From Candidatus Aenigmatarchaeota archaeon (GTDB lineage Archaea > Aenigmatarchaeota > Aenigmatarchaeia > Aenigmatarchaeales > Aenigmatarchaeaceae): a DNA stretch of 15,598 nucleotides. Below, one piece after another: positions 133-15,598 of this stretch. The translations under genes were made by a program, and so were the position numbers. Position 1 is the stretch's first letter; each line of letters starts with the position of its first letter. The DNA lies in assembly GCA_043814985.1 (NCBI GenBank), contig JBDRJK010000009.1, positions 1 through 15,598 of the forward strand, given 5' to 3'. The notes under the pieces are model-generated. The model made no database searches. It was not told the origin of the DNA and saw only the letters and a list, made by a program, of their open reading frames with translations.

Positions 133-147
133 CTTATAAATGTTTCG
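133..147 (-). promoter_or_regulatory. Archaeal BRE-TATA promoter (CGAAACA-TTTATAAG) for a probably leaderless leftward gene
   Basis: The minus strand reads CGAAACATTTATAAG. Spacing to the ATG at 110 fits a leaderless archaeal transcript. The architecture matches the promoter at 12401-12415. Confidence 0.65.
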
Positions 148-617: not shown

Positions 618-771
618 CATCCGCAAAGAACTGCAGAAGAAAAACCAGCAGACCCGACAAAAAATCCAGAAACAGAAAGACAACCAGGAAGTCGACGACT
701 TCATGGAAGACATAGGCATCGACAGAGTCGATAAGCCACAAAAAAAGGATGAAAGGAGGTCAAGAAAATGA
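601..771 (+). CDS. Small charged hypothetical protein
   Basis: In frame with ORF 589..771, with GAGG at 591-594 before ATG 601. The stop overlaps the next start (ATGA at 768-771). Confidence 0.55.
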   Translation: MTQQNDIRKELQKKNQQTRQKIQKQKDNQEVDDFMEDIGIDRVDKPQKKDERRSRK

Positions 772-1247
772 AACTTGAAGCATCAGACAAGGTTGCCGTA
801 CCTCAAAAACGGCCATTTATCAAAAAAGGATTCTATCATGCACGACTGGTAGAAATCAAGCCAAAGAAGAACGAGAGCAAATTCGGCAAGAAGATTGTCC
901 TTATCTTTGACATTCTTGATCCGAAATACCAGCAGAACGGAAAGTTTCTGCAGCTCGCAACAGAAGTGTATTCTGAATACAAGCAGGACGATGGAAGCTA
1001 CAGGACAGCAATAACCCCGAACAGCAACATCACCAAAACGTTCCAGGCACTGGGATGGAAATTCTCCAATCAGGGCCTTGACACAAACGATTTCATCGGA
1101 GCAGAAGCAGAAGTTCTGGTTGAAGACTACGAATACGACTGGACAGACCCAGCAACGACCAAGACAGAGAAAACCAGAGCCAGCACCATCAATGACGTCA
1201 ACCCATGGAAAGATGAGGCGGAGGTAACCGAAGAAACCATCCAATAA
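768..1247 (+). CDS. Putative single-stranded DNA-binding protein (DUF669-like phage OB-fold)
   Basis: GGAGGT at 755-760. Pattern 'KGFYHARLVEI...KFGKKIVLIFDI...DTNDFIGAEAEVLV...INDV' plus an acidic tail is typical of phage SSB-like proteins. Located in the replication module. Confidence 0.55.
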   Translation: MKLEASDKVAVPQKRPFIKKGFYHARLVEIKPKKNESKFGKKIVLIFDILDPKYQQNGKFLQLATEVYSEYKQDDGSYRTAITPNSNITKTFQALGWKFSNQGLDTNDFIGAEAEVLVEDYEYDWTDPATTKTEKTRASTINDVNPWKDEAEVTEETIQ

Positions 1248-1264
1248 ACGTCACCACTGTTCAG

Positions 1265-1355
1265 TACGATTATGTCAAAATCGCAACATTACACTGACAG
1301 ACCCCCTATTTTCGGGTTTGAAAAAAGTAACTGATAGGGTTTTGACATAATCGTA
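1265..1355. repeat. Perfect 16-bp inverted repeat (TACGATTATGTCAAAA / TTTTGACATAATCGTA) with 59-nt spacer
   Basis: Arms at 1265-1280 and 1340-1355 are exact reverse complements. An inner CCCTAT (1304-1309) / ATAGGG (1334-1339) pair is also present. Confidence 0.9.
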
Positions 1356-1446
1356 TCGGATAGTAGTAACAAAAAGACGACTGGAAAACAAGCGAGACTG
1401 CTCGAAGTAGCTGCAGCTATCAAAAAAACAAAGGAGGTACAGAAGA

Positions 1447-3504
1447 ATGAACAAAGAAATATTCATGAGTTTCATGAAGTTTGGCACTCTTGGCCTGCCA
1501 AAAGAAATACTCACAGAACTCAATGGAAAATACTTCACTGCAGCAGACTCACTGATCCAGTCAACAAAACCAGAAGATATTCAGAAGAACATAGCAGTAC
1601 TCTCAGAATTAGAGAAGTATCTGAGAAAGATTTCTGAAGAGCATGATGTTGATTTTCCAGATGTTTTTTTCTTTTTGAGCGGATACTACAATTCAGACAT
1701 CGTTTGTGAGAACCTCAAGGAAGACGATAGAGTTCCTGATGCATTCATCAAATCTCTTGAGAGCAAACATACTGAAAACAGCATCATCAAAATATCTCAG
1801 CCATACAATTACGAGCAGATAAAATATATTACCCGTCAGATATTCAATAACCAGAAAGAAAGACACCCTCTTATTTTTCCAATACCTCCTCATGAAAAGA
1901 TTTTGGGAAAAGTAGTTGGAGAGATAGAGCAAAGAAAAATAAAAATTCCACTTGCTTGGTCAAATGAAATCCAGGTCAAAGACGTAAAGAATTATGCAGC
2001 ATATGTTTTTGGCGAGACACTTCCAAAAAGGCCAAAGATAGTCGATGAAGTAAACGGAGAATTCTTCCTCTACAGATTTCTCTCAAAAAGCGGAAAAGAA
2101 TACGCACTGGCAAGCATAGACAAGCTTAATCTCGATGACTACACACTTGACGGGATAAGCATTGAAGTTGAGGACGTAAAGATACTTGGCGATGCATACA
2201 GACTGCTCAATAAATTCACGCTCTTCTTTGTCCATACTGCAGAAAACCACGTCTGCCAATTAAAGAACCATCAGCAATTATTCCAGAAAGCTGATGCTGT
2301 AAAACTCACAGGAATAAAACTTTATGACTATCTTTGCAGCTATAAAAAAGATGGAATAATCCAGATTCTCGAGCATCCAAAATGGTTTCTCAGGCTCGTA
2401 TCAGCATTTCTGTTTCACAAAAAGAAGGGAGACACTGCAGAATACCCTATGCACCTTCTTTGGATTTCCGAGAGAGGGGCTGGCAAAACCAGCTTCATGG
2501 AAGGAGTCCAGCAAAAGAGCGGAGAGACGCAGGGCATCATAGCTGGAAGCAATTCCACTATCAAATATCTCATTCCAAGTTTTAAAGAAACACGAAGACC
2601 AGAGATGGGAGCTCTGGCCAAAGCATCACGTCTCTGCGTCATTGACGAATTCTTCAGAGTCATCAGGATAAATCACTTAGACCATGACGATGAATGCGGG
2701 AAGATGAACGATCTTCTCGAGCATAAGGACAGGCAGGCTGGAAGCGGACATGGCATGATAAGAACCAGCATGACTGCACGAGTAATTGCTGGCACGAACC
2801 CGATTGCAGGAACAAAAGACATCATTAATCTTCTTGAAAGGTTTGACGATTCTTTCCTGAGCAGATTCCTCATTTACTATCAGACTGACGAGCACTTAAA
2901 ACTCATTCAGCAGATGAAGAAAACAGCACAGAAAAGGTACACAAAAGATTGGATTGATGTCAACGACTTTCTCAGCATCCAGGATTATCTTCAGGGATTT
3001 GATGCAAAATATGACCGACAAAGACTCATCGACATCTTTGACAGATTCCTGCTGTTCTTCAATGAGCAGGTAAAAGGATTGTACGAGGCAAGATATCTGC
3101 ATCACCTCGAATGCCTCACTGACGGAATCGTAAAAACGAGATGCCTCATAACAAGAGATGCAGCATTCACGGCAACAGAAGAAGATTATCAGGAAGTAGA
3201 ACAGATATGGGGCACAATACTCAAAGGATGGTTCAAGCAAAGCATCGATGAACTCGTCTGTGATTTGAATGTACCAATAGAAACCCGTCTGAAATTTCTT
3301 CCTGAAGATGCAATGTTCATTCTGCACAAGCTTGCTTCAATCGGATACAAGGCAAGGATAACAGAACTCAAAGACAAATGCAGAATTGAAATGTCTGCTC
3401 CAAAAATAGCATTCCAGATGTCCCTTCTTCATAGAGGGGGATTCATCAAAGACAACAACGGAGAAGCAATCCATTACGCATGGGATGTAGAGGAGAGAAA
3501 ATGA
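1447..3504 (+). CDS. mcm: Divergent MCM-family AAA+ replicative helicase
   Basis: Walker A HLLWISERGAGKTS, GALAKA, Walker B LCVIDEF, sensor-1 IAGTNP and arginine finger FLSRF occur in MCM order. Probable C-terminal winged helix. GGAGGT at 1433-1438. Confidence 0.85.
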   Translation: MNKEIFMSFMKFGTLGLPKEILTELNGKYFTAADSLIQSTKPEDIQKNIAVLSELEKYLRKISEEHDVDFPDVFFFLSGYYNSDIVCENLKEDDRVPDAFIKSLESKHTENSIIKISQPYNYEQIKYITRQIFNNQKERHPLIFPIPPHEKILGKVVGEIEQRKIKIPLAWSNEIQVKDVKNYAAYVFGETLPKRPKIVDEVNGEFFLYRFLSKSGKEYALASIDKLNLDDYTLDGISIEVEDVKILGDAYRLLNKFTLFFVHTAENHVCQLKNHQQLFQKADAVKLTGIKLYDYLCSYKKDGIIQILEHPKWFLRLVSAFLFHKKKGDTAEYPMHLLWISERGAGKTSFMEGVQQKSGETQGIIAGSNSTIKYLIPSFKETRRPEMGALAKASRLCVIDEFFRVIRINHLDHDDECGKMNDLLEHKDRQAGSGHGMIRTSMTARVIAGTNPIAGTKDIINLLERFDDSFLSRFLIYYQTDEHLKLIQQMKKTAQKRYTKDWIDVNDFLSIQDYLQGFDAKYDRQRLIDIFDRFLLFFNEQVKGLYEARYLHHLECLTDGIVKTRCLITRDAAFTATEEDYQEVEQIWGTILKGWFKQSIDELVCDLNVPIETRLKFLPEDAMFILHKLASIGYKARITELKDKCRIEMSAPKIAFQMSLLHRGGFIKDNNGEAIHYAWDVEERK

Positions 3505-4613
3505 GACTCTACTGCACCCAAGAGGAAGAAGACTATTGGATGGGTGAGCCTATCTATGAAGAAAACAAATCCGTCGGATTTCACAGAATGTGGTTTCTTG
3601 ATGTACTCTCAAGAAAGACTGATTTTGATATCAGCCTGCAAAGTCAGGAGGGATATTTCACGAAAAGAATGTCCTGGTCTGATTTGCATCCTGACAATAA
3701 GCTTCGGGCATACATCATTCATAGAACACTGCTATGCAATGAGATAGTGTTTGATCTTGATGCAAAAGATTACGAGCAGAATGTTGAGAATTTCAAGAGC
3801 ATATATCCACGACTCAAGGAACTCGGTTATTTTCCTTATGTGTATTATTCAGGAAATAAAGGCCTGCACATCCACCTATTCCTTTCATTCAAAAGCCTCG
3901 TCAACGATTTGGATATGAAGATACAGAAAAGAATTGTCAAGCATTATGCGAGAGCAGAAACCTTTGAAAAACAATTCACAAAATTCATAACCAACAAAAT
4001 ACAATGGGCTCACCGATACTTCTCCGTTGACAAAGCCATTAATCAGACCAATCATCTTATACGTGCAGAGGGAAGCCTCAACAAAATAGGATTCAAGACA
4101 TTCTTAGGACATACTCCAGAAGAAATTCCTTCAATAGCTCCAGTCTTCAATCTTGAAAACAAGGAATATCCAAAATTTCCATTTCATGAGATTACAGATT
4201 CACTTGAAACCATAAAGTACTCTCACCCAACAAACCTCGTGCCTCTGTGCGAAGAATTTGTGAAAGCAAAGAAGATAGGAATACAGGAGCCAACATACAA
4301 ACCATTAACGGAGTTCTTTGATATAAAGCCAAAAGACAAGTCATGCATAAAGTTTCTTGAGACGGCAGATTTTGCTAATTTACAAGAAGGAAGGAAAAGA
4401 GCACTCTTCATTCTCGCATCGCATTACAAGGATGATCCTCAGCAGATAGTTATCCTGCAGGAATGGAACAACAAAATCCTCGACAATCACCTGACTGATT
4501 TTGAAATACAGAGTTCTGCAAAGAGCACAACAGGAAAAGTGAGCTGCAAGTACACTCACGAGTTTCTCGAATCAATAGGGTGCAGTCAAGTCTGCAAGGG
4601 GTGTTCGCAATGA
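3501..4613 (+). CDS. Archaeo-eukaryotic primase (AEP) with PriL/PriX-like Cys-containing C-terminal domain
   Basis: AEP motifs EIVFDLD, YSGNKGLHIH and LIRAEGS. The C-terminal part reads SCIKFL..EGRKRALFILASH..VSCK..GCSQVCKGC. Start set at ATG 3501 (ATGA overlap with the MCM stop). Confidence 0.85.
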   Translation: MRLYCTQEEEDYWMGEPIYEENKSVGFHRMWFLDVLSRKTDFDISLQSQEGYFTKRMSWSDLHPDNKLRAYIIHRTLLCNEIVFDLDAKDYEQNVENFKSIYPRLKELGYFPYVYYSGNKGLHIHLFLSFKSLVNDLDMKIQKRIVKHYARAETFEKQFTKFITNKIQWAHRYFSVDKAINQTNHLIRAEGSLNKIGFKTFLGHTPEEIPSIAPVFNLENKEYPKFPFHEITDSLETIKYSHPTNLVPLCEEFVKAKKIGIQEPTYKPLTEFFDIKPKDKSCIKFLETADFANLQEGRKRALFILASHYKDDPQQIVILQEWNNKILDNHLTDFEIQSSAKSTTGKVSCKYTHEFLESIGCSQVCKGCSQ

Positions 4614-4807
4614 TTCAGGTGCAGGGCATTACAGATCCGAAGAAGCAGATGAAAACCATTCAGTTCCTAAAAAGTGTCCCGGAGTTCTCTGATATTGACG
4701 GGAGGAAAAGGGGGCCGTTCAAACCAGGAGACGCTCTGAGGATACATATCGACATTGCTAATCTGCTCATACTCAAAGGCAAGGCCAAAGAGTTTGATAT
4801 CGACTGA
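4610..4807 (+). CDS. Stand-alone GINS B-domain-like protein (65 aa)
   Basis: IQFLKSVPEFSDIDGRKRGPFKPGDALRIHIDIANLLILKGKAKE matches the pattern of the archaeal Gins51 C-terminal B-domain / PriS C-terminal domain. ATGA overlap with the primase stop. Confidence 0.75.
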   Translation: MIQVQGITDPKKQMKTIQFLKSVPEFSDIDGRKRGPFKPGDALRIHIDIANLLILKGKAKEFDID

Positions 4808-4816
4808 GGTGAAACC

Positions 4817-4984
4817 ATGAACGAGGCAATACAATTGAGAAACAAACTGATGGGAGAAATCCAGGCATTGAGGCAGGATAATTCATCATGGAAAAGAAAG
4901 ATAGTGGAGAATGAAAAAAGAATTGCAGAGCTTGAACAGATTACAAAATCATTCGAGCATCTGACAAAGGAGGCAGTACAATGA
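4817..4984 (+). CDS. Small coiled-coil hypothetical protein (55 aa)
   Basis: Below the ORF-track cutoff. GAGGTG precedes ATG 4817. Sequence MNEAIQLRNKLMGEIQALRQDNSSWKRKIVENEKRIAELEQITKSFEHLTKEAVQ shows a heptad pattern. Confidence 0.65.
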   Translation: MNEAIQLRNKLMGEIQALRQDNSSWKRKIVENEKRIAELEQITKSFEHLTKEAVQ

Positions 4985-5151
4985 TGCAAAAACTAAAGCG
5001 AAGATACGTCTATGCAGAAACATTTGACGAAATAATGGCTTGGGCAAAAGAGAAAGGAATCAGAGCTCCGAACAGGAAAGATAATTTTCCATTCTTCCTG
5101 CATGAATATCTGAAAGAAAAAGGAGGCTGTCAAGATGTGGAAAGGATATGA
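4981..5151 (+). CDS. Small hypothetical protein (56 aa)
   Basis: Below the ORF-track cutoff. GGAGG upstream and ATGA overlap with the previous stop. Sequence MMQKLKRRYVYAETFDEIMAWAKEKGIRAPNRKDNFPFFLHEYLKEKGGCQDVERI. Fills the gap before the MTase. Confidence 0.6.
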   Translation: MMQKLKRRYVYAETFDEIMAWAKEKGIRAPNRKDNFPFFLHEYLKEKGGCQDVERI

Positions 5152-6082
5152 TTCACTCCCCAGTTATTTTGGCGGAAAGAGAAAGCTTGCACGAAGAATC
5201 CTAAGCCACACAGAAGGAGAAGTATTCATTGATGCGTTTCTTGGAGGAGGAAGCGTCTCTCTATTAGCGAAAGCAAGAGGATACAAAGTAATCTGCAACG
5301 ACATTTCAGAAAGGTCAAAGATAGTAGGCAAAGCAATCATCGAGAACAAAAACTCCAAGCTGACAGATTATGATGTTTATGCATTGTTCAAGGAAACTGA
5401 CAACCATTTCATCAGAGACACTTATCCGAATCTCCTGCTGGAAAAAGATGTGCAGTTCATAGACAACGCTTTTGCCAATGCGAAGACAGACCTGCAGAAA
5501 CTTCTCTTAATCAAGTTCCTCGCTAAATACAAGCCATTTGGCATGCTGTCCAACAAAATACCTAAAGACCTGGAGACATGCAATATCAAAGTCATAAAAC
5601 CGCACATCAAGTACATGTACAAGCCAGTCAAGGCACTGCAGCAAATCAAGGAACACATCAACTATGGAATCTTTGACAACGGAAAAGAAAACGAACACCA
5701 TCAAAAGGATGTCTTTGAATTCTTAGAGAACGTGCAGGGCGACACTGTTTACTTTGACCCTCCTTATGCTGGAAGCCAGAGCTATGAAGAATTTTACAAC
5801 ATCCTGGACAGCATCCTTTTTCAGAAGAAGATTTCGGTTGAGAAAAGCAAGTTCAACACTGGAGATGCTGAGAAATTCATTCATCAGCTTCTTGAGAAAT
5901 CAATGCACATAAAGAAAGTCATCTTCAGTTTTGGAGGTCCTCAGATTGACGGGCAAAGACTTCTCAAGATAGTGCAGGAGCACAGGCCTGCTGAACTCTA
6001 TGAGATACAGCACAAGTGGGCTATCACGGCAAGTGATGAGCAGATGCAGACTGCAACTGAAATATTGGTGGTGACAAAATGA
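5135..6082 (+). CDS. DNA N6-adenine methyltransferase (Dam/D12-like, alpha group)
   Basis: SYFGGKRKL, SAM-binding FIDAFLGGGSV and NDI at the N-terminus; catalytic VYFDPPY near the C-terminus. GGAGG at 5122-5126. Confidence 0.9.
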   Translation: MWKGYDSLPSYFGGKRKLARRILSHTEGEVFIDAFLGGGSVSLLAKARGYKVICNDISERSKIVGKAIIENKNSKLTDYDVYALFKETDNHFIRDTYPNLLLEKDVQFIDNAFANAKTDLQKLLLIKFLAKYKPFGMLSNKIPKDLETCNIKVIKPHIKYMYKPVKALQQIKEHINYGIFDNGKENEHHQKDVFEFLENVQGDTVYFDPPYAGSQSYEEFYNILDSILFQKKISVEKSKFNTGDAEKFIHQLLEKSMHIKKVIFSFGGPQIDGQRLLKIVQEHRPAELYEIQHKWAITASDEQMQTATEILVVTK

Positions 6083-6702
6083 AAACTGAAAGAATATCTG
6101 TAAATCTGATAGATGAAAACGAGTACAACCCAAATGAGATGGATGAGAACCATTACAAAAAGCTTGTCCAGAACATCAAAAGAAAAGGCTTCAGAAAACC
6201 AATCGAAGTCAGAAAGAATGGAGAGCGCTACACGATAGTTGACGGAGCACATAGGTTCAGAGCGTGCAAAGAACTGGGCTACACTGAAGTAGACTGCATA
6301 GTGGATGAGATTGACGTAACAGAAGCGATGGTTGATACCTTAAACGCCAATATTCATGGCAGTCACAATCCCTACAAGGAAGCCATGATGTTCAAGCAGA
6401 TACACGACAGGTACACTCTCCAGGACATTGAGAAACTGACAGCATATGGCCAGACTGAAATCAAAGACAGAATGGACTTGCTTGGCCTTCCCGCCAATGT
6501 CCAGAAGATGATTGAAGAGCTGCAGGAAAAAGAGCGAAAAGAAGCGCCAGTGGTTCTTACGTTCATTGTAAAGGAGACTGAGAGGCAGCTCGTTATGGAT
6601 GCTTTGGGCTTATTTGAAGATGCTTCTGACAAGAATAAGGCACTATTGGCGCTGTGCAAAAGTGCTCTGGAAAAACAGGTGATTTCTGATGGAGCAAAAT
6701 GA
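6079..6702 (+). CDS. ParB/Sulfiredoxin-like N-terminal domain protein
   Basis: NEYNPNEM...LVQNIKRKGFRKPIEVR...YTIVDGAHRFRA, followed by a helix-turn-helix-like segment. ATGA overlap with the MTase. Confidence 0.88.
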   Translation: MKTERISVNLIDENEYNPNEMDENHYKKLVQNIKRKGFRKPIEVRKNGERYTIVDGAHRFRACKELGYTEVDCIVDEIDVTEAMVDTLNANIHGSHNPYKEAMMFKQIHDRYTLQDIEKLTAYGQTEIKDRMDLLGLPANVQKMIEELQEKERKEAPVVLTFIVKETERQLVMDALGLFEDASDKNKALLALCKSALEKQVISDGAK

Positions 6703-7285
6703 AACGCGGTCTCAAACGCCGTCTCAGGATTCAAGACTGGACAGATTCGGAGATAAGATACATGTCTTCACAGATGAAGAACGATTAAAGGGCAATAAAT
6801 ATATCTCTCAAAAGAGAAAAGTAGCTAATTCCCTGAACTCCTTCAAGCACGGGTATTATTCAAACAGGGTTCCTCACTGCCACACCTGTATCTTTAAAAG
6901 CAAATGCACGGCTTATGATCCTAAGGACCCGAAAGCTGCATGCAAAGTAATTGATATCCCTAACTACCTGCATCTGATGTCGGCTCTCACTTTTACTTCT
7001 GAGCAAGAGTTTGATGACTTCATTAACAAACAAATGCAGAGAGCATTCATGAAGAATCTGACGGCAAATGACCAGAAACAGATTCTTGATTTTGTGACAA
7101 TCATTCTCAAAGTAAAGGACACAAAATTCAGAACTCCGCAGGAGCAGACAATCAATCTGCAGATAAATAATTTCACATCTGAGTTTCAAGTCTTGAAGGA
7201 TGTGACAATCAAAGTTCTGAATAAGCATCCTGAAGTAATGCAGGAATGGAGGGCCGCAATTGAATCTGCCAAACAGCCCAATTGA
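6689..7285 (+). CDS. Putative terminase small subunit
   Basis: Directly upstream of and overlapping TerL. Contains an NSFKHGYYS motif resembling the 'NAxKHG' of TerS-like proteins, a CxxC-x5-C-x10-C cluster, and a helical C-terminus with 'TINLQINN'. Confidence 0.55.
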   Translation: MEQNETRSQTPSQDSRLDRFGDKIHVFTDEERLKGNKYISQKRKVANSLNSFKHGYYSNRVPHCHTCIFKSKCTAYDPKDPKAACKVIDIPNYLHLMSALTFTSEQEFDDFINKQMQRAFMKNLTANDQKQILDFVTIILKVKDTKFRTPQEQTINLQINNFTSEFQVLKDVTIKVLNKHPEVMQEWRAAIESAKQPN

Positions 7286-8732
7286 GAAAGCGCTCTTTGA
7301 CAGCTTCAAAGAGCCGAATTATTCCAACTTCATAGGATTCGTAAAGAGATATCTCGCTCCCTTTATGGAACAGTCCTTTGTAGAGGAAGATTACTACAAG
7401 GAATGGTTTGACCTCGAGCAACTTAATCAGTACAATGCCATTGAAGCTCCAAGAGGACACAGTAAAAGCGAGATGTTCACCGTATGGATTACAATCTACT
7501 ATGCAATCTACAACATCCATCACGAGCAAATAATATCCAGCGTCAGCGGAGACCAGACCAATGAATTATTTGACAGAGTAAAATTCTTCTTCTATGTAAG
7601 CAATTATCTCAATGAACAATATAAGCCAGAAGGAGCAGACAAAAACGTCAGCCTGAGTTCATGGAACTCAAAGAAAATAGTTCTCAAGAATGATACAATT
7701 ATTCATGCACGAAGCATTGCAGGAAAGTGGAGAGGGCTCCACGTTGACAGAATTGTCTGCGATGATATCATCACAGAAGACAGCACTTTAAGCGACAGGC
7801 AGACAATCAACAAATTTTATTCCGCAGTGTTCAACTGCTCAACAGCGAAGAAAGGAAAGATTACAGTCATAGGAACTCCCCTAAGATTTTCTGATATACT
7901 TTTTGATTTGAAATCAAATAAGCAGTTTAATTTCAAAGCGTATCCTGCAATTCTTGATTATGAAAAGAAGATTGTTCTCTCACCTAAAAGAAGATCATTC
8001 GAAGAATTGCTGAGGATAAAAGATACTATCGGCTCATTAAGATTTCAGTGCGAGTACATGCTCAACCCCATCGATGACCAGAGTTCAATCTTCAAAAGAG
8101 AATGGCTGAACAGGGCAAGAAATGAAAGCATTGACCTAATCAGGAACAGACAGGACTTGCAGAAATACGGATTCAATCCGACGCTACTCACCTGCGGAGC
8201 TGACTTCGCATTCTCAGAGAGAAAGAATGCCAATTATTCAGTATTTCTCACACTTGCACGATTAAATGACGGAAGGCTTCTGCTCTGCAATTACTTCAGA
8301 GCTCAGGGACTTACAGGCCAGCAGCAGGTAGACAAACTCAGGGAACTGCATGCCATTTACGATTATGATGTCATGGCTTTGGAAGAAAACAGCATCATGG
8401 CAATAAGCAAAGACCTGCACGGGCTTGGCCTGCCAATAAAGCTTCTCAGGACAGGCTCACGAGATACTGAAAACACCATCTCCAAGACAAACGCTATTCT
8501 GAGAATGACGACATGGTTTGAGAACAACCAGGTCATAATTCCTTACGGGAGCGATGAAGCAAAGGAAAGATACGAAATTCTTGAGCAGGAATTCAGAAGC
8601 TTCGCACTTGAAGACGGGAAAATAATCGAGATTGGAGTCCACCCGGACATACCTATTGCTTTCGTGTATGCAGGAGAATCTGCAAAGAAAGCAACTCAGG
8701 CATCAGGATTCGTGACAAGCATAGTACGATAA
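7260..8732 (+). CDS. terL: Terminase large subunit
   Basis: Walker A APRGHSKS, Walker B IVCDD and coupling motif IGTP. RNase H-like nuclease motifs GADFA, LEEN and HPD. TTG start with GGAGG at 7248-7252; the exact start is uncertain. Confidence 0.92.
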   Translation: MNLPNSPIEKALFDSFKEPNYSNFIGFVKRYLAPFMEQSFVEEDYYKEWFDLEQLNQYNAIEAPRGHSKSEMFTVWITIYYAIYNIHHEQIISSVSGDQTNELFDRVKFFFYVSNYLNEQYKPEGADKNVSLSSWNSKKIVLKNDTIIHARSIAGKWRGLHVDRIVCDDIITEDSTLSDRQTINKFYSAVFNCSTAKKGKITVIGTPLRFSDILFDLKSNKQFNFKAYPAILDYEKKIVLSPKRRSFEELLRIKDTIGSLRFQCEYMLNPIDDQSSIFKREWLNRARNESIDLIRNRQDLQKYGFNPTLLTCGADFAFSERKNANYSVFLTLARLNDGRLLLCNYFRAQGLTGQQQVDKLRELHAIYDYDVMALEENSIMAISKDLHGLGLPIKLLRTGSRDTENTISKTNAILRMTTWFENNQVIIPYGSDEAKERYEILEQEFRSFALEDGKIIEIGVHPDIPIAFVYAGESAKKATQASGFVTSIVR

Positions 8733-8753
8733 AAAAAGGAGGTTCAAATAAAA

Positions 8754-9113
8754 ATGTTCAATCCAGAAAACCTTAGCAGAAGAGACAAAAAAATAATGAA
8801 TGCACTGCTCTACTTTTATCCAAGAAAGAGAAGTGCATTCCACATATACGAGTACATCTCAAAGTTCAACCAGAAAAGCGGAGTCAAGAATCCAAAAGCA
8901 CTCGGCCACATACTCACAAGGTTCCCAGTCAAAAGCTCGCTCACAGTATTCCAGTCATACGTTGATAAAAGCATTTCAGGAAGCAGATTCATACGATTAT
9001 ACGTTCTTGATGATGGCTTTGTAAAAAAATATTATAAAGAAAAAAACGGACTTCTGATATTGGACAGAAATAAGTCTAAGGAATCTGGTAAACATGGGGC
9101 AGGAAGAAAATAA
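8754..9113 (+). CDS. Basic hypothetical protein, possibly winged-helix DNA-binding
   Basis: GGAGGT at 8738-8743. The three-helix plus beta-hairpin pattern is a by-eye impression only. Confidence 0.55.
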   Translation: MFNPENLSRRDKKIMNALLYFYPRKRSAFHIYEYISKFNQKSGVKNPKALGHILTRFPVKSSLTVFQSYVDKSISGSRFIRLYVLDDGFVKKYYKEKNGLLILDRNKSKESGKHGAGRK

Positions 9114-11127
9114 GGCATTAATGGTGCTCTCACAAGTAAATGAGGGCATAAGGCAGACAGCCACGACAGTAGATTACTCTACTGTAAACTATACAAAACT
9201 TGAAAGCATCTACAAAACAGACCAGCTCATCTTCCAGGCAGTAAACATCATCAGCACATTCGCCATAAGCAAGGGATACCAATACGTCGTCTCAGAGAAC
9301 ACTGAAGAAGAAATGGCTATGAGAGATAAAATAGCTTCACTTGATACTATCGTCGGGCTTCCAAAGCTATTGACTGATATTGTACGGCATCTGCACATTT
9401 ACGGGAATGCATATCTTGAAATCGTTTACTCCAGAACTGACAATAAGAAAGTTGTCGGTCTCGCACTGATTGATCCTAAGACCATCACATTCAAAAAGAA
9501 AGGGACTGGAGAAATAGACCTTGATGAAAGCGGAAACATAAAAGGGTACATCCAGACTGTAAACGCCAAAAAGATAGAACTTAATCCGAATCAGATAATT
9601 CATTTCAGAATCAACACCATTGCAGACTCTCTTACAGGAACAGGAATCATCGAGCCACTGGTCAAGATTATAGAAGCCAAAAGAAACATTGAGGTAGGTC
9701 TTGCAGAAGCAGTGTATCGTCATGGATTTCCGCAATTCCATGTGAAGCTTGGTGACAAAGAGCATCAGCCTACAGGAGAGCAGGTAACAGAAGAATCTGA
9801 AAAGTACAAAAGAATCAATTCAAAATCAGAATTCGTCACCCCCTATTATTACGAGATTAAGGTTCTTGAAGCTCCTGCATTAAAGGGCGGAGAAAGTTAC
9901 CTCAAGTATTTCATTGACCAGATTGTAGCAGGAACGGGAGTTCCTCAGACCATTCTTCTTGGAAGCGGAGAATTCAGCAACAGGTCATCATCAATGTCAC
10001 AGCAGGAAAACTTCTTTTTATACATCGCAGGAATACAAAGCCTTGTCGCAGAAACACTGCAAAAGGAACTATTCACAAAGATTGTCCTCCTCGATGAATG
10101 TCCTGTATATATGTTTTTCAATTCATTGCAGACAAAATCAGACCTGGAACTCGCCCAGGAAAGAGAGATTTATCTGCGTTATAATGTTTTAACTCCTGAT
10201 GAGGTCAGGCAAGAAATGGGCTTGGAACCTCTTTCTACACCCCCAACGGATGAGCAATCCCAATCTGATGCATCAGGAGATTTTTCTTTCCTCAACGATA
10301 AGGAACTCATGCTCGAGCCAGATTCAGGATTTCAGTACATCCACGAAGAGCTTGATTTCGGAGGAGTGCTCCAGCAATTATCTGAACCTATCCGCTCACG
10401 ATTCATCAAAGACCAGCAGATACTCACTTACAGAATCAACAGGATAATGGACAAAGCAAGGGCAAAAATACTCAACGAAATAGACATAAACACAAAAGAC
10501 GAAACCCCGATTCTTGCACGAGAAAACATTCTCATTGATTCTGAAATGCTTGCCCCTGAGCGAGACGCTCTTGTCGCAGCAATCTTTCTCGATTCAAAAA
10601 AGAAATTCAAGCAGGGAATAAAACTTGGAGAGAACTTCATCAAAAAGAATTATCCCCAGGTTGCAGGAATAAAAGTCAAGAGCACAATCAATGAACAGGC
10701 CATCAGAGCTCTTGACCTGAGAGCATCGCAATTGGCCAATACTGTAAGCGAAGACCTTCTTGCAGCAACCCAGATTTCCATACGTGACGGAATAATGGCT
10801 CGCAAAGGAGCAAAGCAGCTTAAAGAGGACATCGAAGCAATCTTTGAGAAATATGGAGGCTCTTCTGGAAGATTCAATAAAGTCGGTACAAGAGCAGAAC
10901 TCATAGCAAGAACAGAACTGCAGAGGGCATTTATCGAGGGAAATATTCAAAGCTTCAAAGAACTTGGAGTGATGAAAGTCCAGATGTCAATCAATCCTGA
11001 TGCATGCGAGCAATGCATAGAAACATCATCCCAAAACCAGGATGTGTCCATACATCTTGCAGAGGGAATAATCCCAGTTCATCCACGATGCAGATGCGGA
11101 TGGGTTGTATCATTAATTGAGAAATAA
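9094..11127 (+). CDS. Portal protein fused to a MuF (SPP1 gp7-like) head morphogenesis domain
   Basis: The N-terminal ~380 aa carry portal motifs IYGNAYLEI, IIHFR..GTGIIEPL, GVPQTILLG and LTPDEVRQEMGLEPL. The C-terminus carries MuF motifs RAELIARTE, DACEQC and PVHPRCRC. Single uninterrupted ORF. Confidence 0.88.
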   Translation: MGQEENKALMVLSQVNEGIRQTATTVDYSTVNYTKLESIYKTDQLIFQAVNIISTFAISKGYQYVVSENTEEEMAMRDKIASLDTIVGLPKLLTDIVRHLHIYGNAYLEIVYSRTDNKKVVGLALIDPKTITFKKKGTGEIDLDESGNIKGYIQTVNAKKIELNPNQIIHFRINTIADSLTGTGIIEPLVKIIEAKRNIEVGLAEAVYRHGFPQFHVKLGDKEHQPTGEQVTEESEKYKRINSKSEFVTPYYYEIKVLEAPALKGGESYLKYFIDQIVAGTGVPQTILLGSGEFSNRSSSMSQQENFFLYIAGIQSLVAETLQKELFTKIVLLDECPVYMFFNSLQTKSDLELAQEREIYLRYNVLTPDEVRQEMGLEPLSTPPTDEQSQSDASGDFSFLNDKELMLEPDSGFQYIHEELDFGGVLQQLSEPIRSRFIKDQQILTYRINRIMDKARAKILNEIDINTKDETPILARENILIDSEMLAPERDALVAAIFLDSKKKFKQGIKLGENFIKKNYPQVAGIKVKSTINEQAIRALDLRASQLANTVSEDLLAATQISIRDGIMARKGAKQLKEDIEAIFEKYGGSSGRFNKVGTRAELIARTELQRAFIEGNIQSFKELGVMKVQMSINPDACEQCIETSSQNQDVSIHLAEGIIPVHPRCRCGWVVSLIEK

Positions 11128-11136
11128 AAAGAAAAA
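11121..11136 (-). terminator. Oligo-T archaeal terminator candidate for the TR RNA
   Basis: The minus strand reads TTTTTCTTTTTATTTC immediately 3' of the closing stem of the predicted TR RNA. Confidence 0.45.
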
Positions 11137-11137
11137 G

Positions 11138-11395
11138 TGTCCCAGCCATAAGCTTGACTATTCCGACGAAACGCCCATTATTGTTGATGTTGTTGTTGCC
11201 ATCGAGGCCATTATTATTGTTGTTGAGATACGCCAGGCGCCCCTAGAGTAGCCATTTCACTTTCCTGAAAGCCACCACCACTTCAGACATTAGCTGTCGT
11301 GGTTGTATTTTATAGCAGCAAGCTGCCGTAGTGAAATGACGTGTAGTTCCAAGCTACTCCATAACCTCATGGAAGTCCATGAAGCAACTGGGACA
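11138..11395 (-). ncRNA. Predicted structured DGR template RNA containing TR
   Basis: No ORF. Complementary pairs: 11138-11145/11388-11395 (8 bp), 11246-11252/11353-11359 (7 bp), 11253-11261/11330-11338 (9 bp). Local hairpins at 11277-11303, 11315-11326 and 11367-11382. G-U extensions form only on the minus strand. Confidence 0.7.
11158..11244 (-). repeat. DGR template repeat (TR)
   Basis: The minus strand conceptually reads GRLAYLNNNNNGLDGNNNINNNGRFVGI (11 AAY codons). Ungapped 87-bp match to 11584-11670. Confidence 0.96.
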
Positions 11396-11415
11396 GAAAG
11401 CAAAATAAAAGAAGG

Positions 11416-11433
11416 AATATAAAAAAATATCGG
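11416..11433 (-). promoter_or_regulatory. Candidate BRE-TATA promoter for the TR RNA (may also terminate the target gene)
   Basis: The minus strand reads CCGATATTTTTTTATATT, with the TATA-like part ~25 nt upstream of the predicted RNA 5' stem at 11395. Confidence 0.45.
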
Positions 11434-11437
11434 TAAT

Positions 11438-12346
11438 TTATCGCTTGTACAGCTGAGATACGGCTTTTAGCATGCCTTCTCTGTTCAGGTCTGGGTTATT
11501 GATAACTGCCAGTGTCTGCTCGAGAGTTGGCTGCACAATGCTTTGAGGAGCTGATTTTTCGCGCGCAACTGCGCCTCCGGCGCCTACCCCGACGAAACGC
11601 CCAACATCGTAGATGCTGTTGTAGCCACCGAGGCCATAATCATTGTAGTCGAGATACGCCAGGCGCCCCTTAGCTTGAGCGTCAAAACCAACATCATTGA
11701 TTCTGTGATAGCTGCCGTTATTACTCCAGCCTTCTCCGCCCTCCTCCTTTTTGCCAAAGAGCATTTTAGCTAATGCTTCTCTGTTTTCAGGAGAGCCAGT
11801 AATCATCAAGACCCTGTCGTCCTGCATAAAAGTATCGTAATCCAGCTGGCCACTGCCGTTAATCTTTGGGCTGTCCTTGTCTAATCGAGCAAAGATAGTG
11901 TAGGGAGTTCCTGGTGCAGGCACATTGCCTTTCCTTGCATCTTCAAGATGTACTCTGGCAACAGTCTGGCCATTATAGCTGCCTTTTCCAACAGCAACCC
12001 ATTCATCATCAGAAATGGGCATGAACGCATAATTTCCAGCCTGCTTGAATAGCTTTTCCAAGCCTTTTGCAGTAGCCAAAGAGCCTGCTGAATGCCATGC
12101 CTCGTAAGAACGATCTCCGTCTCTCTGTCCATGATATTCACCAGTGATTGTGTCAATCCAAGTAGGTCTGATTGCTTCACGAACTTCAGGATGAGTTGTC
12201 ATGGACTGAATGACCATAGGCATGTCTGCTACGGTTAATCCATGTTCTTGAGAAAGTTTTTCAGCTTGATTTCTTGCCTTAACGTATCCAGTCTGGTCAG
12301 TAACTGCTGCCAGTACAGGTGATTTTATTTGCACGATTTGTGACAT
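11438..12346 (-). CDS. DGR variable (target) protein, probable C-type-lectin fold
   Basis: Contains the VR in frame (GRLAYLDYNDYGLGGYNSIYDVGRFVGV). Has its own SD (GGAGGT, 12356-12361) and promoter. The GRFVG ending resembles CLec-fold DGR targets; the fold itself is inferred. Confidence 0.9.
   Translation of the reverse strand: MSQIVQIKSPVLAAVTDQTGYVKARNQAEKLSQEHGLTVADMPMVIQSMTTHPEVREAIRPTWIDTITGEYHGQRDGDRSYEAWHSAGSLATAKGLEKLFKQAGNYAFMPISDDEWVAVGKGSYNGQTVARVHLEDARKGNVPAPGTPYTIFARLDKDSPKINGSGQLDYDTFMQDDRVLMITGSPENREALAKMLFGKKEEGGEGWSNNGSYHRINDVGFDAQAKGRLAYLDYNDYGLGGYNSIYDVGRFVGVGAGGAVAREKSAPQSIVQPTLEQTLAVINNPDLNREGMLKAVSQLYKR
11571..11583 (-). other. GC-rich hairpin GCGCC-GGA-GGCGC directly 3' of VR (homing/IMH-associated stem-loop)
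   Basis: 5-bp stem with a GGA (GRA-type) loop that begins where TR/VR similarity ends. Absent after TR. Confidence 0.75.
11584..11670 (-). repeat. DGR variable repeat (VR)
   Basis: 13 of 87 positions differ from TR, all at TR adenines (8 A>G, 5 A>T). None of the 58 non-adenine positions differs. Confidence 0.96.
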
Positions 12347-12400
12347 TTTGAGCGAACCTCCATTAAATTGACTATCTTTTTATAGGATAAAATCAGGTAG

Positions 12401-12415
12401 TATTTAAAGGTTTCG
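12401..12415 (-). promoter_or_regulatory. Archaeal BRE-TATA promoter of the DGR target gene (CGAAACC-TTTAAATA)
   Basis: Consensus-like BRE and TATA box ~55 nt upstream of ATG 12346, with SD GGAGGT in the leader. Confidence 0.75.
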
Positions 12416-12465
12416 ATTTTGTAATCACTACGAAGTAGTGTTGCTTATAAAAACAGCAGATGCCG

Positions 12466-12663
12466 TCAATCTTCCTTTAGGGGGAACTTCTCAATGAGTA
12501 TGTACTCTTTTTTATTCATACGCACTGCACTGACCTGTACCTTGCTCCCGCTCTTCAAGCCGATTGCCTTGGCCTCTCTGGTAACCAAAACCCCTATCCC
12601 ATTCCCATATGTATTCAGCTGCTTAACAGACCGTTCAATGATTTCCTTTTTTGAATCATTCAT
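12466..12663 (-). CDS. AbrB/SpoVT/MazE-type swapped-hairpin DNA-binding protein
   Basis: 65 aa with 'YGNGIGVLVTREAKAIGLKSGSKVQV...ILIEK', the usual AbrB-fold pattern. Confidence 0.7.
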   Translation of the reverse strand: MNDSKKEIIERSVKQLNTYGNGIGVLVTREAKAIGLKSGSKVQVSAVRMNKKEYILIEKFPLKED

Positions 12664-12673
12664 TCATGTATCT

Positions 12674-12766
12674 TACAGTATATAACTAATAAACACCGTA
12701 TTATACAGTATATTACGTGACCAGAATCAATGTTAATAAATCGGATGTAATATACCTTATATTACG
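12674..12766. promoter_or_regulatory. Divergent promoter region with operator-like repeats
   Basis: TACAGTATAT at 12674-12683 and 12704-12713. TATATTACG at 12709-12717 and 12758-12766. Inverted repeat GTAATATA-cct-TATATTAC at 12747-12765. TATA-like TTAATAAA at 12733-12740, 27 nt before the RT ATG. Confidence 0.55.
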
Positions 12767-14485
12767 ATGCAGGATACAGGCATAATTGAGAATGTTTACG
12801 AAGAACTCTGTTCATACGAAAATCTTGAAACCGCTTTCAACAGGGCAAGAAGAGGCAAAACACTCAAGGACTATGTGATTGAATTTGAAGCAAAACTAAA
12901 AGAGAATTTGCTACAGCTGAGGACAGAACTTCTCCTGCAAACATACCAGCCACAACCCCTCAAAACATTCATTCTTCGAGATCCAAAAACAAGGAAGATA
13001 AGCAAGTCAGCATTCAGAGACAGAGTTGTGCATCATGCAATATGCAATATCATTGAGCCTGTTTTTGACAAGAGGTTCATTTACGACTCCTTCGCCAACA
13101 GACTAAGAAAAGGAACCCTAAACGCAGTCAAAAGGTTTGACGAATTCAAAAGAAAAGTGTCGCAGAACAACACTATCAGATGCTATGTTCTCAAAGCAGA
13201 TATCAAAAGTTATTTTGACTCAGTAAACCATCAAATCCTCTTACAAATACTCGGCAAAAGAATCAAGGACGAAAGATTACTGTGGCTCATAAAGACAATT
13301 CTCGACAACCATAAAGGAGAAGACAGCAACAAAGGCATGCCCTTGGGAAATCTCACATCGCAATTCTTTGCCAATGTCTATCTCAATGAATTTGATCAGT
13401 TTGTCAAGCACAAGCTGAGAATCAAATATTACATACGATATGTTGATGATTTTGCAATTCTGCATCAATCTCGCAAAGTACTTGAAGACTACAAAGAAAA
13501 AATTAATACGTTTCTCAAAGACAAGCTGGATCTCAAACTTCATCCAGACAAATCCCAAGTTCTCAAATTGGAGAAAGGCATCGGCTTTCTCGGATTTCGA
13601 GTATTCTACCATCATAAAATCCTAGTAAAAAAGAACATGAGAAAGTTTGAGAAAAAGATGGAACAGATGAAGCATGAGTATGGGGACAAGAAGCTTGAAA
13701 GAGAAAAGGTCATCGAGAAATTCGAAGGCTGGCTTGCATACGCATCTCACGCAAATACTTACAAATACCGAAAAAGAATGACGAGCAAATTCAACCATTC
13801 ATTTCCAACTCAGACAGATACCACAATTACCTCGGTTAAAAAACATGAAAACTTCAATCATAAAGTTGACGAAAGCAAGACGGCATTCAGCCAGCAAAAG
13901 ACACTTCAGCTCGTCAGAAGAGGCATGTCTGTCAAACAAATTGCGGAAGCAAGAGGTATCAAAGAAGGAACCGTCTGGGATCATGTGGCCTCTTCAATTG
14001 AGCATTATCAATTACAGCTGAAGTCAATTCTCCCAAATTATAAAATACGGAAAATTCTTTCCAATATTAAATCACCTGATGATAAAATCAAGGACATAAA
14101 AGAAAGAGTCAATGATATCTCAATATCCTACAACGAGATCAACTGCGTTCTTGCCAACGTCAAAGGAAAACACAAAAAGAAAAGCATGATGTATTTTATC
14201 GACTGGTACAAACGAACAAACTGTTTCAGAAAGTGCTATTTTAATAAAAATCAAAGGCAAGAATGCAGAGTCAAATTTCAGCAGCTCGCTGCCAAGGGTG
14301 CAGAAATGAATTTTACAAAGAAAGAATTTCTCGATTTCTTCAACAATCATGTCAGCATATGCGTTCTTCCAGACAAGGATAAGAGAAAATTTGTTTCATG
14401 GAAAGAGTTCAAACAGAGTCTCCGCAAAAAGAAACCCAATCCAGACAATAAACCATCCGACAATAAGAAACCTACATCTCCCTAA
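12767..14485 (+). CDS. DGR reverse transcriptase with C-terminal HTH extension
   Basis: Motifs FRDRVVHHA, YVLKADIKSYFDSVNH, the DGR-type GMPLGNLTSQ (13334-13363), YIRYVDDF (YVDD 13439-13450) and FLGF. Followed by ~220 extra aa including TLQLVRRGMSVKQIAEARGIKEGTVWDHV. Confidence 0.95.
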   Translation: MQDTGIIENVYEELCSYENLETAFNRARRGKTLKDYVIEFEAKLKENLLQLRTELLLQTYQPQPLKTFILRDPKTRKISKSAFRDRVVHHAICNIIEPVFDKRFIYDSFANRLRKGTLNAVKRFDEFKRKVSQNNTIRCYVLKADIKSYFDSVNHQILLQILGKRIKDERLLWLIKTILDNHKGEDSNKGMPLGNLTSQFFANVYLNEFDQFVKHKLRIKYYIRYVDDFAILHQSRKVLEDYKEKINTFLKDKLDLKLHPDKSQVLKLEKGIGFLGFRVFYHHKILVKKNMRKFEKKMEQMKHEYGDKKLEREKVIEKFEGWLAYASHANTYKYRKRMTSKFNHSFPTQTDTTITSVKKHENFNHKVDESKTAFSQQKTLQLVRRGMSVKQIAEARGIKEGTVWDHVASSIEHYQLQLKSILPNYKIRKILSNIKSPDDKIKDIKERVNDISISYNEINCVLANVKGKHKKKSMMYFIDWYKRTNCFRKCYFNKNQRQECRVKFQQLAAKGAEMNFTKKEFLDFFNNHVSICVLPDKDKRKFVSWKEFKQSLRKKKPNPDNKPSDNKKPTSP

Positions 14486-14519
14486 AATAATATTAAGAAA
14501 AAAACAGATTTCTCATGTT

Positions 14520-15119
14520 ATGTCTGAACTACTGCTAAAAGAGATACACGGATTCGTCAGCACTGCTAAATCCAAGAAGGAAGAATCATCTAAGGAAATG
14601 ATAGACGCATTTCTTTCCAACAACGCAGTAGCAGTCCAGATTAATTCCTTATCACGCTCACTTGAATATGTTCAGCTCCATGGCGTAAAAATCCAGCAGG
14701 TTCTAAGGGAAGGCACTTCCCTGAGAATTACAGGAGTGGCCATAAGCGAGGGCATGTGGAATGGCATATTCTATCCTGCAGAAGAGCTGGAGAAAGCATA
14801 CAAAGGACTCGAGGGAAAACCTCTGAGGATTGACCATTCTTCAAGTATAAGGGATATTGTCGGGAAAGTCATCAGGTCAATATGGAATGCTGCTCAGAAA
14901 AGAGTAGAATTTGAAGCAATAGTCAATGATGATGAAATTGCCCAGAAGCTCCTGGACAAGCTGATTGATTCTGTGAGTGTTGGTGTGTTAATAGACAATG
15001 TTGAAGAAAACGGCGAGCATGTAGCCCGCAATATCGAATTCAAGGAATTGAGCCTTGTTGATGATCCTGCATGCAAAGATGCGAAAATCAATCCAATAGG
15101 AAACGGAGGCACTGATTAA
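14520..15119 (+). CDS. Prohead (capsid maturation) protease, HK97/herpes-like fold
   Basis: ITGVAISEG.WNGIFYPAEEL...GKPLRIDH (His), IVGKV, VSVG (Ser) and ELSLVDDPACKDAKI. Start set at ATG 14520 to avoid overlap with the RT. Confidence 0.85.
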   Translation: MSELLLKEIHGFVSTAKSKKEESSKEMIDAFLSNNAVAVQINSLSRSLEYVQLHGVKIQQVLREGTSLRITGVAISEGMWNGIFYPAEELEKAYKGLEGKPLRIDHSSSIRDIVGKVIRSIWNAAQKRVEFEAIVNDDEIAQKLLDKLIDSVSVGVLIDNVEENGEHVARNIEFKELSLVDDPACKDAKINPIGNGGTD

Positions 15120-15120
15120 A

Positions 15121-15477
15121 ATGACTGAAATAAAAGAAATTGAGCAAGCCAAAGCCCTCCTGAAAAAGGCATCAGAAGAGATTACTGCCAAAACTCAGGA
15201 GATAGAAAAGCTTGCACAGGAAATGTCCGCAAAGGATAAGCTAATCTCTGACTTGACTGCAAAACATGAGAAACTGCTCAAAGACTTTGAAGCAGTATCA
15301 AAAGAACTCAAGCATATCAAGCAGGAAGCAAGAGATGTCGTTCTCAAGGAAGCTATTGATGCTGAAGAAAAGTTTGGCATTCTTGAATCCTCCAAAGAAC
15401 AGAGGCTTGCCGAGCTAAGACAGCTTGACGAGACAGGCGGATTTGACCTGTACGCAAAGCAGACCAAGAAAACCTGA
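15121..15477 (+). CDS. Coiled-coil protein, probable capsid scaffolding protein (3' end uncertain)
   Basis: K/E/L-rich heptad pattern and position directly after the prohead protease. The -1 frame remains open past the stop to the window end. Confidence 0.6.
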   Translation: MTEIKEIEQAKALLKKASEEITAKTQEIEKLAQEMSAKDKLISDLTAKHEKLLKDFEAVSKELKHIKQEARDVVLKEAIDAEEKFGILESSKEQRLAELRQLDETGGFDLYAKQTKKT

Positions 15478-15598
15478 CAGGATACAGGAAAAACCTACCA
15501 AAACTAAAAACTGACTACGAATACAACGACTTATCTACAGTCACTAAAGGGATAGAATGGATAATAATAGCAGGAGAACTTGCAGCAGCATTCTTTGG

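Follow-up and report, generated by a model that had tools for sequence, protein, structure and literature searches.

In the diversity-generating retroelement (DGR) of Bordetella phage BPP-1, the accessory protein Avd, a pentameric four-helix bundle, is required together with the reverse transcriptase (RT), bRT. The stretch of DNA analysed here (the window: 15,598 nt, positions 1–15,598 of the forward strand of contig JBDRJK010000009.1, assembly GCA_043814985.1, Candidatus Aenigmatarchaeota archaeon) carries a DGR whose RT core is homologous to that of the BPP-1 bRT–Avd system (8ub7 series; E = 1.3e-53) and whose template RNA likewise has structured flanks. The structured RNAs of the two systems, RT-10 in BPP-1 and RT-16 in the window, are both 'RT' motifs of Weinberg et al. 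(2017), although the structure lies 3' of the template repeat (TR) in BPP-1 and 5' of it in the window. Moreover, bRT is a protein of 328 aa accompanied by Avd, whereas the RT of the window has no Avd beside it and continues into a C-terminal module of 227 aa. The available part of Weinberg et al. (2017) describes RT-1 to RT-19 only as motifs near RT genes, ties RT-10 alone to a DGR and speculates on a DGR link for the others.

The DGRs described from DPANN archaea and Nanoarchaeota with AvpA-type proteins (Paul et al., 2015, PMC4372165; Handa et al., 2016, PMC5006420) belong to the same RT clade as the window and share with it adenine-specific differences between TR and variable repeat (VR), a GC hairpin with a three-base loop after the VR, an AvpA-like target and the lack of a clear Avd. 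The three-base-loop hairpin is drawn for nanoarchaeal DGRs in a figure legend of Paul et al. (2015). The available passages of the two papers point only to small basic open reading frames (ORFs) of Avd-like size and isoelectric point (pI), and make no mention of a C-terminal RT domain. The window differs from these DGRs in having an RT with an HTH_40 domain and a four-cysteine domain, and a template gene on the opposite strand, 1.5 kb off.

In the survey of Wu et al. (2018; PMC5758913), avd is missing from 26% of DGRs, from which an Avd-independent mechanism was inferred, and 14 of 372 DGRs have a free-standing HRDC accessory gene; that of Treponema denticola encodes about 160 aa and lies between TR and RT. 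The HRDC-type DGRs of T. denticola and Legionella (Nimkulrat et al., 2016, PMC4891356; Wu et al., 2018) resemble the window in recruiting a nucleic-acid-binding domain of the RecQ C-terminal type, and HRDC and HTH_40 adjoin in RecQ-like proteins (P0101, P0135, P0158). The HRDC helper, however, has a different fold and is encoded by a separate gene, whereas HTH_40 in the window is fused to the RT and followed by the Cys domain.

Extensions of the RT itself have also been recorded. The main text of Wu et al. (2018), so far as available, states that extensions, reaching at most ~150 aa, occur in about 20% of DGR RTs and that no motif was found in them except MutS_I, in three, while its Table S1 lists 'HTH_40' as an extra RT motif for AQSE01000038.1_5458_6870 of Nanoarchaeota archaeon SCGC AAA011-K22, so that the HTH_40–RT fusion has already been tabulated once. 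This entry has an RT of 1413 nt (471 aa), the order TG-TR-RT on one strand and no AVD range; it matches the shorter HTH_40-only forms reported below, unlike the 572-aa RT of the window. The four-Cys domain, the clade of RTs with this tail and the detached template are not described in the available text of that paper. Literature searches on diversity-generating retroelements with HTH_40, and on PF14493/HTH_40, returned no DGR paper. In these searches and in the passages searched of Paul et al. (2015) and Roux et al. (2021), no description was found of the four-Cys domain, of how large the tailed clade is and that it arose once, of the independence of tail and Avd loss, or of the contrast in template placement.

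A two-part C-terminal module

The RT gene of the window (12767..14485, +; 572 aa) belongs to the DGR clade, as its match to phrog_1423 (E = 3.5e-116) and the match of its family profile, over positions 7–332, to the Bordetella DGR RT chain 8ub7_A (328 aa; E = 1.3e-53) indicate; Pfam places RVT_1 at aa 74–279 (E = 1.9e-26). Because the match to bRT spans positions 7–332, the RT core with its fingers, palm and thumb (aa 1–345; 12767..13801, +), delimited by RVT_1 and the bRT alignment, ends at about aa 335–345. The original prediction, made from the sequence alone, had set this end near SHANTYKYRK (~aa 335) and had noted that the ORF runs on to 572 aa; both statements are confirmed. A linker with a conserved helix follows (aa 346–374; 13802..13888, +), carrying the near-invariant KKHENF and corresponding to helix 18–30 of the extension model. 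At the level of sequence, the family profile gave no PDB match for the extension at E < 0.01.

The next part of the extension (aa 375–462; 13889..14152, +) had been likened by eye to the HTH_40-type domain at the C-terminus of RecQ-like helicases, a resemblance upheld by both profile and structure comparison. PF14493 matches aa 375–462 over its full profile (1–89) with E = 1.7e-18 and 67.1 bits against a gathering cut-off of 27, while the weaker Pfam matches to GerE (E = 0.0024) and HTH_23 stay below their cut-offs. The AlphaFold2 model of aa 340–572, built with 52 homologues, is all-helical with a mean predicted local distance difference test score (pLDDT) of 87.2, and its residues 34–131 (aa 373–470) superpose on 3iuo_B with Z 9.7 and a root-mean-square deviation (rmsd) of 3.1 over 97 of 111 residues, at 13% identity. 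This structure, the C-terminal domain of Porphyromonas gingivalis RecQ, is the sole standout fold match and is also ranked first by Foldseek (probability 0.99, E = 0.2); the next structural matches, at Z 5.5, are generic helix-turn-helix (HTH) regulators. In P. gingivalis the fold shared with aa 373–470 is attached to a helicase, not to an RT.

The module continues with a helical four-Cys domain (aa 471–559; 14177..14443, +) and ends in a basic tail (aa 560–572; 14444..14482, +). The cysteines singled out earlier in NCFRKCYF..QEC..SIC are real and conserved, C486, C490, C500 and C532 being kept in 52, 52, 52 and 51 of 52 aligned homologues, respectively. The basic tail, which the original prediction had also listed, is present, but it is non-conserved and modelled as disordered (pLDDT < 50). 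Modelled alone (aa 471–559), the Cys domain reaches a pLDDT of 85.3. Comparison with solved folds gave no convincing match (best: VIA, Z 5.0 at rmsd 4.8), Foldseek gave none below E 1, and the domain has neither a Pfam family nor a usable protein-atlas match.

An exhaustive HMMER search with the extension returned 183 proteins at E ≤ 0.001, including fused RTs, HTH_40 + Cys proteins of ~200 aa (P0094, P0096) and proteins of 87–132 aa made up of the Cys domain alone, the named ones among the latter coming from Nanoarchaeota and Aenigmarchaeota metagenome-assembled genomes. In the four-Cys domain, DPANN archaea have a small domain family that lacks annotation. The third Cys is replaced by His in several free-standing copies, an exchange that argues for metal ligands rather than disulfide partners, and the domain probably binds a metal, as Zn or Fe–S, through its four Cys.

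Two free-standing four-Cys genes were located in the phylum of the window, at L207 (G286:C68; 3745–4047, −) and L208 (6971–7276, −), and in both the third ligand is His and a further CxxC stands at the C-terminus. One copy is flanked by a Zn-ribbon-like gene and a topoisomerase gene, whereas the neighbours of the other are a SWIM-finger gene and a VapC/AbrB pair. A search of genome contigs for context, based on P0096, returned only helicase-type HTH_40 regions of Bacteroidota.

Among the matches of the extension search, HTH_40 also occurs in RecQ with HRDC and two HTH_40 copies (P0101), in PIF1 (P0110) and DEAD helicases, in HRDC–HTH_40 proteins (P0135, P0158) and in an RNase H1–HTH_40 protein (P0153); within RecQ it follows RQC and HRDC, sometimes in two copies. 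One HTH_40 is fused to sigma-70 region 4 (P0175) and the remaining ones are attached to enzymes. These HTH_40-bearing enzymes handle DNA or RNA–DNA hybrids. P0153 (471 aa), in which RNase H1 is joined to two HTH_40 stretches, is a further example of HTH_40 on an enzyme acting on RNA–DNA hybrids. Two Big_2 repeat proteins (P0150, P0172) and L174 were dropped as spurious matches.

Distribution and phylogeny of the tailed RTs

With the extension as query, PF00078 (RVT_1) and PF14493 were found together in 58 of 59 clusters at 90% identity. The extension is therefore a real, conserved and folded module, and its treatment as something other than a read-through artefact was justified. The fused clusters are mostly 540–610 aa long, with extensions 49–95% identical to that of the window, and are named as Nanoarchaeota, Woesearchaeota or 'archaeon'; some members are called 'helix-turn-helix domain-containing protein' by NCBI. 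The length that follows the RT core is bimodal, 6–53 aa or 215–236 aa, the exception being L002, which is truncated (142 aa).

In a quick maximum-likelihood tree of RT cores (47 rows, the truncated L006 left out), all 18 tail-bearing RTs formed one group (Shimodaira–Hasegawa-like approximate likelihood ratio test, SH-aLRT, 92), nested in an archaeal clade (96) that also holds tail-less RTs; the RTs of bacteria of the candidate phyla radiation (CPR) and of Omnitrophota fell outside this clade. A second quick tree left the tailed grouping unresolved and did not contradict it. Judged from these sequences, the fusion of RT and tail is old, conserved and of single origin. Within the Nanoarchaeota-type phylum that holds L005, 120 of 401 sampled genomes have a DGR RT of this family at E ≤ 1e-20 and about 25 of the 401 have a full-length tailed RT. 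A pattern scan of genome contigs gave 98 stretches, mostly bacterial chance matches, of which 17 passed a three-motif filter. Shorter RT forms of ~470 aa were also found, with HTH_40 and without the Cys domain.

Many related RT genes (Micrarchaeota, Woesearchaeota, Nanoarchaeota; L037–L057, L210–L213) are split over two frames or carry one in-frame stop, and the break often falls near one place, at ~aa 150–260 of the RT and, in four HTH_40-only forms, at ~aa 180–190. Recurrent decay, programmed frameshifting or recoding could account for these split genes.

Absence of Avd across the archaeal clade

The genome bin behind the window (label G000) comprises 808 kb in 21 contigs and is 91.2% complete; the window is its entire contig C9. 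Pfam gave no match to Avd, and none to HRDC (PF00570), in the 16 window ORFs scanned, and six-frame searches of the 808-kb, 91.2%-complete genome detected neither PF05635 nor the DGR-specific PF22296 (bAvd). The lack of an avd gene, originally noted for the cassette, thus extends to the whole genome bin. A very basic 119-aa ORF (8754–9113, +; pI 10.2) between the large terminase and portal genes has no family match in Pfam or PHROGs and is not Avd-like (hhalign probability 0.06% against the Avd alignment).

PF22296 was surveyed in the genomes behind 32 related loci and in that of the window. It was present in 7/7 genomes of bacterial CPR relatives, in 0/6 archaeal genomes with a tailed RT (0/7 with G000) and in 2/19 archaeal genomes with a tail-less RT, in neither case near the RT: in the genome of L017 the coordinate of the match exceeds the end of the RT contig, which places it on another contig, and in that of L008 the match is on another contig or at least ~26 kb from the RT. 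When small ORFs within 3 kb of the RT were clustered by BLAST, an Avd-like family appeared in eight bacterial loci only, and one of these ORFs scored 84.4 bits on bAvd. Archaeal cassettes with a tail-less RT hold target, RT-16, TR and RT in ~2 kb, with no space for Avd, and fit better than the window the 'compact, self-contained' architecture that had been attributed to it.

Since Avd is missing beside tail-less archaeal RTs too, tail and Avd do not anticorrelate, and the survey that had been proposed for this purpose (0/7 tailed, 2/19 tail-less archaeal, 7/7 bacterial) did not give the expected pattern. The distribution of these sequences indicates that Avd was lost, or diverged past recognition, at the base of the archaeal clade and that the tail arose later in one sub-lineage; with Avd equally missing in the tail-less sisters, its loss would precede the tail and be independent of it.

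Template placement and the role of the module

Template placement was compared with a set of 38 archaeal-type loci that have an identified TR and an RT match stopping short of the extension. All 38 carry the TR on the same strand as the RT, and in 36 it is 41–125 nt upstream of the match; L009 (216 nt) and L010 (1153 nt, with an inserted ORF) are the exceptions. In 14 tail-less loci inspected, the TR 3' hairpin is mostly ~5–30 nt from the RT start codon, L009 having its 216-nt spacer. With this hairpin running into the RT start, the tail-less RTs are apparently translated from their own template RNA. In the window, by contrast, RT and template gene are encoded on opposite strands, 1.5 kb apart, and the template gene has an oligo-T run at its end. 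Combining two samples, TR/VR and RT are on opposite strands in 19 of 26 distinct tail-bearing loci and share a strand in 7 (13 and 1, respectively, in the first sample), and a detached template was found in 0/38 loci without a detected tail. Among these loci, detachment of the template was thus confined to HTH_40-bearing RTs; a tailed RT need not have a detached template, and few independent events are involved.

Tailed-RT loci often serve two or three paralogous targets spread over 3–6 kb (L001, L003, L013/L124, L098, L215, L227). In such multi-target loci every target is encoded on the other strand from the RT, and a single TR stands at the far end.

With HTH_40 carried by nucleic-acid enzymes and HRDC already known as a DGR helper, the tail is read here as an accessory nucleic-acid-binding module. 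One archaeal RT lineage would have gained a C-terminal module of two parts, HTH_40 and then the small helical four-Cys domain, which would act as an accessory factor within the RT polypeptide, much as free-standing HRDC or Avd helpers do in other DGRs, while being unrelated to Avd. The module would hold the RT on the template RNA (RT-16 + TR), on the RNA–cDNA product or on the target DNA, and would let the RT use a template RNA from which it was not translated. Nucleic-acid binding by the module, the identity of its partner and the relaxed cis coupling of RT and template are all steps that we infer. Our tentative preference, held with somewhat less than even confidence, is that the module helps the RT to find or hold template RNA, or the cDNA hybrid, other than its own mRNA. 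A bolder version, which we regard as doubtful, sees in HTH_40 plus the four-Cys domain a novel type of DGR accessory factor, carried within the RT and containing a metal centre, that recognises RT-16/TR RNA or the RNA–cDNA hybrid and turns a cis-coupled RT into a trans-acting one; the Cys domain would be an unrecognised nucleic-acid-binding fold that is also free-standing in DPANN. Under this bolder version, action in trans would explain why in this lineage alone the templates lie on either strand, up to 6 kb away, and serve several targets.

How DGRs work without Avd is a question that this archaeal clade addresses, since it belongs to a natural series built on one RT core and one template RNA (RT-16): bacterial members with Avd, archaeal members with neither Avd nor tail that are apparently translated from their own template, and archaeal members with the fused module and freely placed templates. 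The requirements for a helper and for cis coupling could be tested in this series by swapping parts, and a single-polypeptide, Avd-free and trans-acting DGR RT would suit DGR-based tools for targeted mutagenesis.

Several observations weigh against a template-holding role in trans. TR/VR differences are adenine-specific in the tail-less sister DGRs as well, although these have neither Avd nor tail, so that the core reaction in this clade does not depend on the module. A second, independent sample of tailed loci, drawn from species-representative genomes, was nearly balanced, with six templates on the opposite strand and seven on the same strand; of the latter, L219 is identical to L092, and in two more loci no TR lay within reach. 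On the quick tree the arrangement has to switch only about twice, which reduces the association to few independent events, and 5 of the 38 loci counted as tail-less end at a contig end inside the RT, with their C-termini unseen. A T-run separates TR and RT in only ~3–4 of the seven same-strand tailed loci. The ~470-aa HTH_40-only forms keep the adjacent arrangement in 3/4 of those with a TR, as does the one entry in Table S1 of Wu et al. (2018), which is likewise HTH_40-only; the fourth ~470-aa form, L209, seems to have decayed and to be paralogous to a full-length copy that its genome also holds. Two generalisations were accordingly discarded: that a tail always goes with a detached template, given the 6 to 7 split of the second sample, and that a T-run terminator is a general feature of tailed loci, given its presence in ~3–4/7 same-strand loci.

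A role in homing to the target DNA is possible, and nearly as likely as one on template RNA or hybrid. Here the module would recognise DNA (the VR end, its GC hairpin, or replication and repair intermediates) in the manner of the RecQ C-terminal domain and guide cDNA integration, which would be helpful where several targets lie kilobases away. HTH_40 is typical of the C-termini of DNA helicases, several tail-bearing loci have two or three VRs over 3–6 kb, and the GC hairpin that flanks the VR is strongly conserved in the tailed lineage; yet GC-rich VR ends are found in tail-less relatives too, and two VR/TR pairs in some of these. The topoisomerase gene adjoining one free-standing Cys-domain gene would fit a DNA-directed function as well, but this neighbourhood is a single case and the second free-standing copy has unrelated neighbours.

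Substitution for Avd and transcriptional regulation fit the comparative data less well than these two roles. In the reading first proposed, the fused module replaces Avd; it would then stand in for the absent pentamer by activating the RT and binding RNA. Such a substitution would agree with the absence of Avd from cassette and genome, with the necessity of Avd beside bRT in the Bordetella phage, and with the basic and helical character of the module. It is nevertheless unlikely, and the proposal was not borne out: Avd is equally missing beside the tail-less archaeal sister RTs (found in 2/19 genomes, neither time near the RT), the tailed-RT family shows no profile similarity to the Avd alignment (hhalign probability 0.09%), and the fold is an HTH, not a four-helix bundle. 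Least probable is the suggestion that the HTH binds an operator and autoregulates the RT or template promoter, since its low-scoring resemblance to LuxR/GerE and winged-helix regulators (GerE E = 0.0024, below cut-off; Z ~5) and the 19-bp palindromes abutting the RT start codon in the window are set against an HTH_40 otherwise carried by enzymes (sole exception the sigma-70 region 4 fusion P0175), a promoter-like TATTTAAA..TTTCG motif that is generic in these genomes, and the lack of a conserved operator, the palindromes being confined to the window and L001, the two loci with a 65-aa ORF, with none upstream of the RT in L003, L004, L005 and L007.

Repeats, target and template RNA

The DGR of the window is genuine. 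Its TR (11158..11244, −) and VR (11584..11670, −) are both 87 nt long, and 13/13 mismatches between them fall at TR adenines. The VR lies in the C-terminal part of the target (variable protein) gene (11438..12346, −; 302 aa), which is weakly AvpA-like (phmmer E = 0.0015 to 5ioo_A over aa 155–300), and just 3' of it stands a GC-rich stem-loop with a GGA triloop (GCGCC-GGA-GGCGC; 11571..11583, −) that is kept in related loci. In contigs from four groundwater metagenome runs of two studies, 9/9 of the VR differences among those listed are at template-adenine sites, which make up 29 of the 87 VR positions (naive chance 5e-5); these contigs mix related strains, with 405 further differences over a 3.4-kb stretch beyond those listed. 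This pattern suggests recent DGR activity without Avd.

The template RNA begins with RT-16 (Rfam RF03019; 11243..11393, −), a structured 5' leader that matches the full model (1–158) over the 150 nt 5' of the TR with 80.1 bits against a gathering score of 50 (E = 2.1e-12). An alignment of 15 sequences has 32 consensus pairs, 18 of them with compensatory changes, and RT-16 precedes the TR in 14/15 template loci of the tailed lineage and in 12/12 tail-less loci. The 3' flank of the TR (11118..11157, −) consists of a short hairpin, a CUGGGAC complementary to the RNA 5' end and the oligo-T run. More generally, the first 7 nt of the RNA (e.g. UCCCAGU) can pair with seven bases (e.g. GCUGGGA) that come right after the TR 3' hairpin, and the pairing is perfect in 17/24 sequences with 12 different heptamers (alignments A4, A7). 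Given this complementarity, a long-range helix may close the RT-16 + TR unit (11118–11393, −). Alternatively, the 5' strand can pair locally, in the first stem of RT-16, so that the template RNA has two possible structures. The segment UUGGAACUACACG, considered as a tail-specific RNA motif, proved to be merely the lineage version of a shared RT-16 segment.

Genomic context of the cassette

By Pfam and PHROGs, the genes of the window make up the head and replication module of a tailed virus. They comprise a primase-polymerase-like gene (3480–4613), a Dam-type methyltransferase gene (5135–6082), a ParB-like gene (6079–6702), the large terminase gene (7260–8732) and a 677-aa ORF (9094–11127, +) in which the portal (aa ~30–390) is fused to a Mu-F-like/minor-head-protein domain (aa ~550–670). 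The DGR cassette separates the portal gene from a protease-like gene, after which comes a coiled-coil scaffold-like gene. Comparison with L001 sets the true start of the protease-like gene at M58 (position 14520), so that it does not overlap the RT gene. The Cys domain of this RT was found in 0/14 genomes of the same family and in 4/301 genomes of the phylum (G000 counted), a rarity that marks the contig as behaving like a mobile or viral element. The window is part of the head module of a tailed virus or provirus of a DPANN archaeon.

Between RT and target lies a conserved basic ORF of 65 aa (12466–12663, −; pI 9.7), absent from the original prediction, which is 78% identical to an ORF of L001 and has no significant Pfam match. 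Copies of a 19-bp palindrome, GTAATATACC(G/T)TATATTAC and a variant, occur at 12698–12716 and 12747–12765, one of them abutting the RT start codon. ORF and palindromes co-occur in the window and L001 only; the ORF is possibly a small regulator, with the palindromes as putative operators. As a general HTH_40 site, GTAATATACC(G/T)TATATTAC was ruled out by this restriction to two loci. The motif TATTTAAA..TTTCG with a hairpin upstream of the RT was likewise rejected as a cassette element, being a generic promoter-like motif of many loci on both strands. In the form TATTTAAA-NN-TTTCG-(A/T-rich) it is common on both strands of these DPANN genomes, often with a short hairpin after it, and its copy in the window (12395–12440, +) faces the RT but sits upstream of the antisense 65-aa ORF.

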